Virus record (IMG/VR): IMGVR_UViG_3300029843_000030
DNA from: a virus
Lineage: Duplodnaviria > Heunggongvirae > Uroviricota > Caudoviricetes
Reading direction: 5' to 3' (one strand)
Length of the DNA: 23,574 nucleotides
The notes beneath the pieces are model-generated. The model was not told the origin of the DNA. It ran no database searches and saw only the letters and a program-made list of their open reading frames with translations. Positions 8,966 through 9,716 of the stretch are shown here, one piece after another (position 1 is the first letter of the stretch; every line of letters begins with the position of its first letter). The position numbers and the translations under genes were made by a program.

Positions 8966-8996
8966 GCCCGCGTCTCCCAGCGCGGGCTTTTTTTGC
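8966..8996 (+). terminator. Intrinsic-terminator-like hairpin on the plus strand (GCCCGCG-loop-CGCGGGC followed by T7)
   Basis: 7-bp GC stem with an 8-nt loop followed by TTTTTTT. Oriented against late transcription. Confidence 0.45.
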
Positions 8997-9231
8997 CCAC
9001 AAGAAAGCCCCTCCGGAGAGGGGCTGGAGAGTGGCGCTATGTGCCATTGCATGGTGCCGGGTGCCTCCCGGTGAGTTCAGCCCGGTGACACTGAACCCGC
9101 GTCATTCTCGTTTTGATAATCAGAGATTATACCGTCACCAGTCGCCCCTCCGCTCAGGGGGATTCGCCATGCGAAATTTTTTTAACAAATGCCCAGTCTG
9201 ACAGGCAACTGTCAACTTACTGAATTGTGAG
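8997..9231. repeat. Noncoding repeat unit, copy A (~235 bp)
   Basis: First ~85 bp nearly identical to copy B (aagcccctccggagaggggctggagagtggcgctatgtgccattgcatg.tgccgggtgcctcccggtgagttcag); remainder diverged but alignable. On the minus strand the GCCCCTC-TCCG-GAGGGGC hairpin is followed by TTTCTT (9001-9024). Confidence 0.7.
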
Positions 9232-9265
9232 CAACATAGCATTTAACGGGGAACCTGTTTTCTGC

Positions 9266-9296
9266 AGTAAAAAGGCCCACCGGAGCGGATGGGCCT
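9266..9296 (-). terminator. Intrinsic-terminator-like hairpin on the minus strand between the two repeat copies
   Basis: On the minus strand AGGCCCA-10 nt loop-TGGGCCT is followed by TTTTTACTG. Confidence 0.45.
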
Positions 9297-9480
9297 GGAA
9301 GGATAGCGGTCATGTGATGCCGGTTTCCCGGTAACTCAGCACCGGTATCTGAGTCAACGTTTTCTCTACTGGGTCATTTCCGATACGCCCTGCCTGCTGA
9401 CAGGCTTTCATCACATCTGAAAATATAGCACCCTGACTGATACTGTAGTACCCAAGGTTCCAGAAACTGTGATGTATCCG

Positions 9481-9716
9481 GCACAGAAAAGCCCCTCCGG
9501 AGAGGGGCTGGAGAGTGGCGCTATGTGCCATTGCATGATGCCGGGTGCCTCCCGGTGAGTTCAGTATCAGCACCTGAACCCGCACAGAAAGGATAAGGGT
9601 CGGTGACAAAACACCAGTTGCTGATTACCCCTCCGCACAGGGGGATTCACCATGCCAGTTTCTTTTAACAAACTCCCCGCAAACCAGACAACAGTCAACC
9701 GCCTGAATTGTGAGGT
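9481..9716. repeat. Noncoding repeat unit, copy B (~235 bp)
   Basis: Same conserved 85-bp module and same minus-strand hairpin plus TTTTCT (9484-9508) as copy A. Short ORFs across the copies are not conserved. Confidence 0.7.

Follow-up and report, generated by a model that had tools for sequence, protein, structure and literature searches.

A probable triplet of STnc100-family small RNA genes facing a convergent small RNA gene in a lambdoid prophage of Escherichia coli

The virus record IMGVR_UViG_3300029843_000030 (IMG/VR; 23,574 nt, hereafter the window) represents the late region of an Escherichia coli lambdoid prophage, and it carries a block of tandem repeats upstream of a nanS-p-type esterase gene. 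Our analysis indicates that this block most likely consists of three head-to-tail small RNA (sRNA) genes of the STnc100 family on the minus strand, facing a fourth sRNA gene of the Hfq type, unrelated to them, on the plus strand, all of them independent genes acting in trans. Two of the units (A and B) are members of the Rfam family STnc100, all three have a fold in common, helix P0 and a pseudoknot covary among the relatives, and promoter-like and terminator elements occupy defined positions around the units. A preliminary description of the region, made from the sequence alone, had proposed two copies of a structured element, representing either a pair of sRNA genes or a stack of terminators gating cargo expression behind Q antitermination; it was unaware that the sRNA family had already been described.

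Identification of three STnc100-type units

An Rfam scan at curated thresholds (gathering score of RF02076, 47 bits) matched copy A (8995-9201, minus strand, 169.8 bits) and copy B (9479-9684, minus strand, 135.6 bits) to STnc100 over the full model (positions 1-206). The repeat itself is real, with a near-identical module (8998-9080 vs. 9482-9564, 96% over 83 nt) and a diverged remainder (9145-9231 vs. 9628-9714, 78% over 87 nt) at a period of 483-484; the central ~64 nt of the copies are ~49% identical and the whole units 75% identical. The count of two copies had to be corrected, since the intervening sequence is itself a diverged unit (M). A search at relaxed thresholds gave a full-length match of M to RF02076 at 9267-9440 (minus strand; 30.1 bits, E = 9e-4), which is below threshold, and M differs from A and B along its whole length. 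Comparison with sRNAs known from prophages of enterohaemorrhagic E. coli (EHEC) thus places the copies in STnc100, the family of EcOnc27/sRNA103. The match is to a known sRNA family and not to a repetitive extragenic palindromic (REP)-type element, as judged from the RF02076 identity, the ~240-nt unit length and the prophage-only context, REP and enterobacterial repetitive intergenic consensus (ERIC) sequences not having been compared directly. Elements of the REP/BIME and ERIC kind are short imperfect palindromes scattered among intergenic regions of the core genome. The units are as follows:

8998..9172, minus strand: unit A, predicted transcript (RF02076 match and fold)
9006..9025, minus strand: terminator of unit A, AGCCCCTC-TCCG-GAGGGGCT, then TTCTTGTG (terminator scan)
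9268..9417, minus strand: unit M, diverged third member of the STnc100 fold (sub-threshold RF02076 match and fold), ending in the terminator 9296..9273
9482..9655, minus strand: unit B, predicted transcript (RF02076 match and fold)
9490..9509, minus strand: terminator of unit B (terminator scan)

The terminator scan found 11 terminator-like sites in 8600-10000, compared to 1.4 +/- 1.0 in shuffles, and recovered all four hairpins noticed previously, i.e., the minus-strand hairpins at 9025..9006 and 9509..9490 (AGCCCCTCTCCGGAGGGGCT and a T-rich tail), a minus-strand hairpin between the copies (9296..9273) and a plus-strand hairpin (8966-8987) followed by T7. The hairpin between the copies exists but is not a standalone element, being the terminator of unit M; similarly, the plus-strand hairpin is present to the left of copy A but belongs to a separate, convergent gene for a known sRNA on the opposite strand.

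The region had been regarded as probably noncoding, and our results agree. Only two open reading frames (ORFs) of at least 60 aa touch it, 8890-9201 (plus strand) and 9310-9609 (minus strand), and these lie on opposite strands and do not cover corresponding parts of the repeat; no coding sequence (CDS) is annotated there in a 99.8%-identical RefSeq genome. We give hardly any credence to the possibility that the repeats encode small proteins, whether the 103-aa and 99-aa ORFs or a micro-ORF from the AUG in GCAUGG. Such ORFs do exist, ribosome footprints have been recorded on some copies of strain EDL933, units A and Sakai both read AUG GYG AAU CCC CCU ... UGA, and CDSs for "hypothetical proteins" have been placed on homologous arrays in several phage records, but the AUG of GC-AUG is not conserved in diverged units, most of which lack a start codon there, and its positions covary as the RNA helix P0. 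With regard to the annotated proteins, ON470607, ON470612, PV189400 and other phage records carry one to three "hypothetical protein" CDSs over homologous arrays, and these calls are probably spurious. The E. coli-type units begin with GC-AUG, and the near-leaderless micro-ORF thus formed has 11 codons in A (MANPPERRGDW; 9170..9135, minus strand) and 28 codons in B (9653..9567, minus strand).

A conserved fold with a covarying helix and pseudoknot

The STnc100 consensus structure comprises a closing helix, a 5' hairpin, P3, a CCGGG-AGGCA-CCCGG hairpin and a terminator, and the minimum free energy folds of A, B, and M all match it. Unit A folds into P0/P1/P3/P4 followed by a linker and terminator (z = -2.17), unit B has the same architecture (z = -2.74), and unit M alone also adopts the family architecture (z = -3.11). 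The fold was evaluated on an alignment of 73 units sharing <92% identity (A2; MAFFT), onto which the structure of unit A was projected. The proposed structure paired 76.2% of alignment cells, compared to at most 52.6% in slid controls, and gave a covariation score of 0.225 (at most 0.122 in slid controls); on four of five measures, no shuffle out of 500 came up to the observed value. The checks by RNA folding and covariance that the preliminary description had proposed therefore yielded both a shared fold and covariation in P0 and the pseudoknot.

Covariation across the 73 units supports P0 and P3. Helix P0 (GCAUGGUG/CACCAUGC in E. coli-type units) is paired in 90.6% of cells and shows double changes at seven of its eight pairs, e.g., GC in 33 and AU in 31 units at one pair, and CG in 26 and UA in 20 at another. 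A pseudoknot, in which the strand just 3' of P1 pairs with the P3 loop, shows double changes at all eight pairs and is absent from the Rfam structure line shown by cmscan. Its arms differ between A (CUGGUGAC/GUCACCGG) and B (AUCAGCA/UGCUGAU), yet both sets are complementary, and those of M are UAUCGG/CCGGUG. In P3 and the pseudoknot arms the MAFFT alignment has flaws that depress the paired percentages (59-67%), and an alignment-free swap test was therefore added. Among 60 distinct arm pairs, native duplexes averaged -10.98 kcal/mol and swapped duplexes -7.55 kcal/mol (permutation p <= 1e-4), and complementarity of the pseudoknot is preserved across many different arm sequences. P1 (AAUCCCCCU-NN-GCGG-N-GGGGC) and P4 (ACCGGGAGGCACCCGGCACC) are nearly invariant in sequence. 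P4 is likewise invariant across seven genomes of Enterobacterales (among them Raoultella, Atlantibacter, Kosakonia, and Enterobacter) that were found via the 5' motif only; the scan of genome contigs with the 14-mer TGGTGAATCCCCCT returned 120 loci, mostly chance matches in unrelated phyla, of which these seven are real. The combination of covarying helices and invariant hairpins suggests a specific partner.

Two structural likenesses were set aside. The cloverleaf-like junction is not taken as tRNA-like, since ARAGORN calls only three true tRNAs in the window and P0 ranges from 8 to 16 bp in length. The strand order of HDV-like (hepatitis delta virus), twister, and hatchet ribozymes does not match the STnc100 fold, and promoters placed at P0 would make 5' processing by a ribozyme unnecessary.

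Promoters, transcript ends, and terminators

A promoter scan of the family gave scores of at least 8 of 12 for 50 of the 73 units, with -10 elements starting in a cluster 15-18 nt upstream of the G in GTGAAT; that of unit A is at the modal position (17 nt), and those of M and B also fit the family position. Diverged units carry a canonical TTGACN-17/18-TAAATT-type promoter at a fixed upstream distance. The family promoter position puts the start at the first base of P0, which is the RNA-seq 5' end of the related sRNA PasD2 (741157, corresponding to GCAUGGUGAAUCC). From homology to that 5' end and the conserved promoter position, we infer that unit A begins at G9172. In Salmonella LT2, RpoD signal has been found at STnc100 promoters by chromatin immunoprecipitation with exonuclease digestion (ChIP-exo; PMC10794520). 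The predicted elements are:

9179..9208, minus strand: sigma-70 promoter of unit A, -35 TTGCCT (9208..9203), 18-nt spacer, extended -10 TGtTAAAAA (9187..9179)
9662..9691, minus strand: promoter of unit B, -35 TTGTCT (9691..9686), 18-nt spacer, TGtTAAAAG (9670..9662)
9422..9430, minus strand: extended -10 of unit M, TGcTATATT
Predicted starts, minus strand: A 9172 (G of GCAUGG), B 9655, M ~9416

A conserved box, TCACAATTCAG-N4-TTGACWGTTG, lies upstream of the predicted promoters of A and B at 9210-9231 and 9693-9714 (minus strand) and at 2893-2915 of our locus L003 (the Sakai copy), with a weaker version upstream of M (TCACAGTT). The box could be a site for a regulator or a second promoter, its TTGACA having a suitably spaced but poor -10. 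Polymorphisms downstream of stx2B have been associated with haemolytic uraemic syndrome (HUS; +90 T<->C and +103 delT; PMC12711010). These map to the predicted extended -10 (TGtTAAAAA) and the discriminator of EcOnc27/STnc100, at ~2937-2952 of L003 (Sakai Sp5), just upstream of the predicted start G2952, and correspond to 9173-9187 and 9656-9670 of the window. The HUS-linked polymorphisms may thus alter expression, via the promoter, rather than the RNA body.

By strict criteria, an intrinsic terminator occurs within 130 nt of the core in 79 of 117 distinct downstream contexts of the family. In the window, a further terminator-like hairpin is located in the nanS-p leader (8882..8897, minus strand: CTGCGCAACTGCGCGG then TCTTTTTC; terminator scan), and the leader upstream of ECs_1207 in Sakai Sp5 is 95% conserved relative to it. 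Four minus-strand terminator-like hairpins therefore stand within 650 nt directly upstream of nanS-p, and it is conceivable that the primary role of the region is in cis, the stack silencing the nanS-p/lysis cassette in the lysogen until overridden by Q, with the "sRNAs" as by-products. The presence of a Q gene and the late-operon orientation fit such a role, and Tree et al. placed elements of this kind downstream of the Q-antiterminated PR' (PMC4104026). We nevertheless consider it unlikely, since simple hairpins would suffice for this purpose, yet each one is preceded, ~145 nt upstream, by a conserved, covarying, pseudoknotted domain that has a promoter-like element of its own; moreover, family units also occur singly, downstream of stx2B, or without a terminator, and homologues accumulate as Hfq-bound RNAs. 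The gating idea of the preliminary description is therefore compatible with the data as a side effect, because three intrinsic terminators and the 8897..8882 hairpin separate the moron genes from the nanS-p/lysis genes, but the promoter-like element in every unit and a fold that is conserved and covaries rule against its being the main explanation.

Recurrence of the fold in the dicB leader

A fourth element with the STnc100 fold is present in the window at ~22311-22445 (plus strand), between DicF (22242-22293) and the start codon of dicB (22468). It scored 40.1 bits against STnc100 (E = 2.9e-7, local search), which is below threshold, and folds into P0/P1/P3/P4 without a terminator (z = -5.73), with a compensated P4 (CCUGG/CCAGG) and a retained pseudoknot (CAGUUAA/UUAACUG). 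The same leader is found in strain E2348/69 (L005, 6866-6990, minus strand) and in Qin of K-12 MG1655 (L246, 1956-2079, ~1649455-1649578). A limited literature search turned up no description of the STnc100 fold as a dicB leader. Several other family units are directly followed by a Shine-Dalgarno sequence and a small ORF. Since the fold precedes dicB and small ORFs, the 5' domain is a module of both terminated sRNAs and mRNA leaders, and it may have a cis-acting or partner-binding role beyond that of a scaffold.

Such a role could take the form of a riboswitch-like or protein-binding sensor controlling the downstream element, with the tandem units as serial cis gates for nanS-p. The layout of domain, linker, and terminator, the invariance of P1 and P4 while P0, P3, and the pseudoknot covary, and the position of the fold directly before the start codon of dicB and other small ORFs, where a ribosome-binding site takes the place of the terminator, are all consistent with a sensor. 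In A and B, the P1 stem (CCCCCU/GGAGGGG) could in addition pair with the terminator arms (GCCCCUC/GAGGGGC). On alignment A2, however, this complementarity is not conserved in members with other terminators, and a riboswitch-like antiterminator formed by P1 and the terminator arms, although possible in A and B, was rejected. A promoter-like element of its own, starting transcription exactly at P0, would also be unusual for units of a tandem riboswitch; homologues engage in Hfq-dependent trans interactions, and no ligand or protein candidate is known. We therefore regard the sensor as quite improbable.

With similarly low confidence, we entertain the idea that the 5' domain defines a so far unrecognised class of structured RNA module (a closed four-helix junction with a conserved pseudoknot and two hairpins invariant in sequence) that heads sRNAs and leads toxic or moron genes, binding a protein, a ligand, RNA polymerase, or a ribosome site. 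If so, prophage leaders, including those of dicB in Qin of K-12 and of small lipoproteins, would carry a module that sets the fate of what follows, and the three-unit array would be a serial cis-acting gate before nanS-p as well as a source of sRNAs.

A convergent small RNA gene on the plus strand

The plus-strand hairpin to the left of unit A is the end of a further sRNA gene, for which we list the conserved module and two candidate promoters:

8926..8994, plus strand: conserved 3' module, with the seed CCUUGCC (8959-8965), a hairpin (8966-8987), and U7 (8988-8994)
8890-8919, plus strand: candidate promoter, TTGCGC-18-TATTAT (read by eye)
8766-8794, plus strand: candidate promoter, ATGCCA-17-GATAAT (9/12 match)

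By BLAST, 8924-8992 (plus strand) is 97.1% identical over 69 nt to a locus in prophage PP6 of enteropathogenic E. coli (EPEC) E2348/69. That locus is the sRNA E2348C_1409.E2348C_1408.IGR (minus strand, 1444797-1444978) detected by RIL-seq, in which interacting RNAs are ligated and sequenced, and its chimeras were with mRNAs, among them the 5'UTRs of cfa (767) and dppA (197), and also tir; its target motif is GGCAAGG, and EcOnc08/21/42 are listed as its EHEC homologues (PMC8550237). GGCAAGG is complementary to CCUUGCC, and this seed is retained in the window, unpaired, ahead of the terminator. The RNA folds with an open 5' region and a terminator (z = -2.96). The PP6 homologue stands back-to-back with an STnc100 unit truncated by an insertion sequence (IS), upstream of an esterase gene, as in the window. 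Identity, seed, terminator, and convergent position thus all place the plus-strand gene in the E2348C_1409.E2348C_1408.IGR group. We also considered the sRNAs AsxR and AgvB, but their models (RF02703 and RF02702) had no match at E <= 5 in 6000-11200, whereas the same method finds AsxR in Sakai at 88.1 bits, and this identity was dropped.

The primary transcript may start further upstream, near 8801-8813. A possible long form of ~180-195 nt (the EPEC 5' end estimate maps to ~8813) would overlap, in antisense, the start codon of nanS-p and its 5' leader with the 8882-8897 hairpin.

Unit A ends at ~8998 and the plus-strand sRNA at 8994, between the TerB/DUF3927 genes and nanS-p. Tree et al. (2014; PMC4104026) reported a convergent sRNA dyad from the moron site in eight or more Sakai prophages, in which two Hfq-type sRNA genes face each other with their 3' ends between the moron CDS downstream of PR' and a conserved phage ORF. 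The locus studied here is such a dyad, with the STnc100 side expanded to three units.

Tandem arrays, mosaicism, and the status of unit M

Scanning viral contigs for the P4 motif yielded 120 loci, and profile searches found 129 occurrences. Tandem head-to-tail arrays account for 18 of the 129, comprising 10 pairs, six triplets, and two quadruplets, with start-to-start spacings of ~205-270 nt for directly adjacent units and a few gaps of 315-492 nt; tandem arrangement is therefore a recurrent habit of the family. The three-unit layout is present in 657 of 5426 complete E. coli genomes (at least 80% coverage of a 1101-nt query) and in a few sequenced phages; most Stx phages have a single unit. 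Four metagenomic IMG/VR loci of unknown host (L024, L037, L074, L015) contain three to four adjacent units, most spaced ~250-260 nt, and some of the last units in these arrays are followed by an ORF of ~63 aa (MKEGFYWIQH...).

Units A and B have their 3' module in common (96%), including the linker AAUGGCACAUAGCGCCACUCUCC, and differ in the pseudoknot arms and variable insert. Within A2, identical 5' domains occur with different linker/terminator modules and vice versa (e.g., L040 3080-3275 vs. unit B, and L007/L049/L070 vs. units A and B). This pattern suggests recombination at the invariant P4/P0 segment, and the family looks like a mosaic of exchangeable modules.

Mosaicism also raises the question of whether a single unit is functional and the rest, chiefly M, are copies in decay left by duplication or by recombination among superinfecting lambdoid phages. 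The score of M (30 bits), the identity profile of the copies (96% in the 3' module, 49% in the centre), and the recombination implied by identical 5' domains with different linkers (L040 vs. B) would be expected under decay. Against this, all helices, the terminator, and an extended -10 are retained in M, the changes that distinguish its homologues are compensatory, the differences between the pseudoknot arms of A and B are compensated, and the three-unit layout has been kept in the 657 genomes mentioned above; we therefore judge decay to be improbable. Homologues of M were found on six viral contigs. In the most diverged of these (L049), P1 changes from CCUGUC/GGCAGG to UCUGCC/GGCGGA and a pseudoknot U.G becomes U-A, and the TGcTATATT upstream of M is identical in all M homologues despite diverged sequence further upstream. 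This pattern is the one expected of a functional structured RNA gene rather than of a decaying copy. Unit M was also considered as a copy of PasD, and this was rejected, as PasD2 aligns poorly with M and has no BLAST match in the window.

Genomic context

The genes of the late region lie on the minus strand in the order Q, tRNA cluster, TerB, DUF3927, repeat region, nanS-p esterase, then holin, lysozyme, and terminase, the last three placed from the annotation of the 99.8%-identical RefSeq genome:

12438-13259, minus strand: Q antiterminator (Pfam Antiterm)
11107-11356: three tRNA genes (ARAGORN)
9911-10414, minus strand: TerB-family gene
9750-9914, minus strand: DUF3927 gene
6811-8772, minus strand: nanS-p-type sialate O-acetylesterase, frameshifted (Pfam DUF1737 and SASA, 7789-8772; DUF6645, 6811-7248)

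STnc100 is expected in the late region of lambdoid or Gifsy/Fels-type prophages, and this is the setting found here. The RefSeq genome labels its esterase copy "frameshifted" and has no CDS or other annotation between the esterase and DUF3927 genes (a gap of ~980 bp, 8773-9749). In the window, nanS-p is split over at least two frames and is probably a pseudogene, as in this closest RefSeq annotation. A 239-aa ORF between Q and the tRNA cluster (11479-12198, minus strand) has no Pfam match, and its homologue in the closest genome is disrupted by IS903B.

Proposed mode of action

Previous work on homologues provides the framework for the three units. STnc100 was discovered in Salmonella and ranks among the sRNAs annotated most often (PMC9029176). 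In EDL933, 11 STnc100 copies are transcribed without induction, one of them Northern-positive (PMC5331693), and there is overlap between the copy that lies downstream of stx2B and EcOnc27/sRNA103, an sRNA bound by Hfq (PMC12711010; PMC7873438). EcOnc27 forms a convergent pair with AsxR downstream of stx2B (PMC4104026), and our searches reproduced the order in Sakai Sp5 of stx2B, STnc100 (207.7 bits), convergent AsxR (88.1 bits), hairpin, and esterase gene. PasD1 and PasD2 gave the expected Northern band and RIL-seq chimeras with many mRNAs (PMC8550237). A 2026 preprint concludes that PasD of EPEC, which lies immediately upstream of the sialate esterase gene, and STnc100 have a common ancestor (10.64898/2026.05.13.724894). 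The reading of the copies as sRNA genes is thereby borne out, since they are STnc100 members and homologues are discrete, Hfq-associated RNAs in EHEC and EPEC (PMC4104026, PMC5331693, PMC8550237).

We propose that the array would be transcribed on the minus strand, i.e., in the direction of the phage late operon, with each unit self-contained behind a sigma-70 promoter, mostly of the extended -10 type, whose predicted start is the first base of P0. P0 encloses a compact 5' domain made up of P1, a variable insert, P3 with its loop pseudoknotted to the post-P1 strand, and the invariant P4 (CCGGG-AGGCA-CCCGG). Downstream of this domain come an unpaired linker and a Rho-independent terminator ending in a U tail. 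By analogy with the homologues, the units would be transcribed in uninduced lysogens as RNAs of ~150-175 nt, bind Hfq via the linker/terminator module, and base-pair with targets in trans, with the 5' domain as a stable scaffold. Given their common 3' module, A and B probably have the same linker seed, with different variable inserts, and the array may widen the range of targets or the dose. As a plausible by-product, the three terminators and the 8897..8882 hairpin would, in the lysogen, keep transcription begun at moron and sRNA promoters from running on into the nanS-p/lysis genes, and after induction the Q-modified polymerase would ignore them.

Several observations weigh against this proposal. 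Transcription of the units is deduced from homologues and not from transcripts of this prophage, and no target or phenotype has been established for STnc100 proper; fimZ and espA rose when sRNA103 was overexpressed, by a route that is not known (PMC7873438). Both A and B have weak -35 hexamers (4/6), M has essentially an extended -10 only, and the U tracts of the terminators are interrupted (UUUCUUGU). Unit M does not reach the Rfam threshold and, its compensatory changes notwithstanding, could be a copy in decay. Ribosome footprints occur on some EDL933 copies (ribosomal coverage value up to 3.2; PMC5331693). Finally, P1 and P4 are invariant and the fold occurs as a terminator-less mRNA leader (dicB), for which a "scaffold" role is insufficient.

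The element is therefore an already described, experimentally studied family in an already described arrangement, and the finding is real and largely ordinary. What may be new is that tandem arrays recur, that a covariation-supported pseudoknot exists outside the Rfam structure line, and that the fold serves as a dicB leader. In practical terms, the RefSeq gap at 8773-9749 should read as three STnc100-family sRNA genes and one convergent sRNA gene. Since STnc100 is among the most abundant sRNA annotations in Enterobacterales prophages, adjoins Shiga toxin genes, and has polymorphisms statistically linked to HUS, the arrays, the pseudoknot, and the recurrence in the dicB leader offer concrete handles on the function of the family.

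Comparison with known systems

Among the closest known counterparts is the STnc100 copy known as EcOnc27 in E. coli O157 Sakai and as sRNA103 in EDL933/86-24. Like it, A and B lie between Q/PR' and the nanS-p/lysis genes, in late orientation and back-to-back with a convergent sRNA; unlike it, there are three tandem units here instead of one, M is sub-threshold, stx is absent, and the convergent partner is not AsxR. PasD1/PasD2 of EPEC E2348/69 resemble the array in lying directly upstream of the sialate esterase gene and downstream of a DUF3927 gene, in being a sub-threshold STnc100 match (41.4 bits), and in their 5' sequence (GCAUGGUGAAUCC...) and overall fold. However, the PasD seed in the 3' linker (CCUUGUGAG) is absent from the window, and Pas copies are dispersed and not tandem (10.64898/2026.05.13.724894). 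PasD2 had no blastn match in the window, and alignment showed only the shared STnc100-type 5' end, so the units are not assigned to PasD; BLAST likewise gave no match to PasA or PasC between nanS-p and holin. The convergent sRNA is similar to AsxR/AgvB in being antisense to late transcription, in having its terminator back-to-back with that of STnc100, and in consisting of a short single-stranded 5' seed and a terminator, but it belongs to a different group (EPEC E2348C_1409.E2348C_1408.IGR), has the seed CCUUGCC, and its EPEC partners are mRNAs and not sRNAs.

Two further candidates were discarded. A type III toxin-antitoxin RNA array (ToxI-like) would have tandem ~36-nt repeats behind one promoter, a single terminator after them, and an endoribonuclease toxin gene, whereas the units here are spaced at ~220-260 nt, none shares its promoter-like element or terminator with another, and the gene downstream encodes an esterase. 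IpeX of DLP12 was considered as a possible relative and dropped after Rfam returned nothing in MG1655 572000-580000.

Tandemly duplicated sRNA genes are also known from OmrA/OmrB, PrrF1/PrrF2, and Qrr1-5, regulators of the core genome whose regulons are known and whose seeds are short and unstructured. As in OmrA/OmrB-type pairs, the units described here are paralogues arranged head to tail that have one module in common, differ in another, and possess individual promoter-like elements and terminators; in contrast to such pairs, they are prophage cargo and carry a large, pseudoknotted 5' domain.

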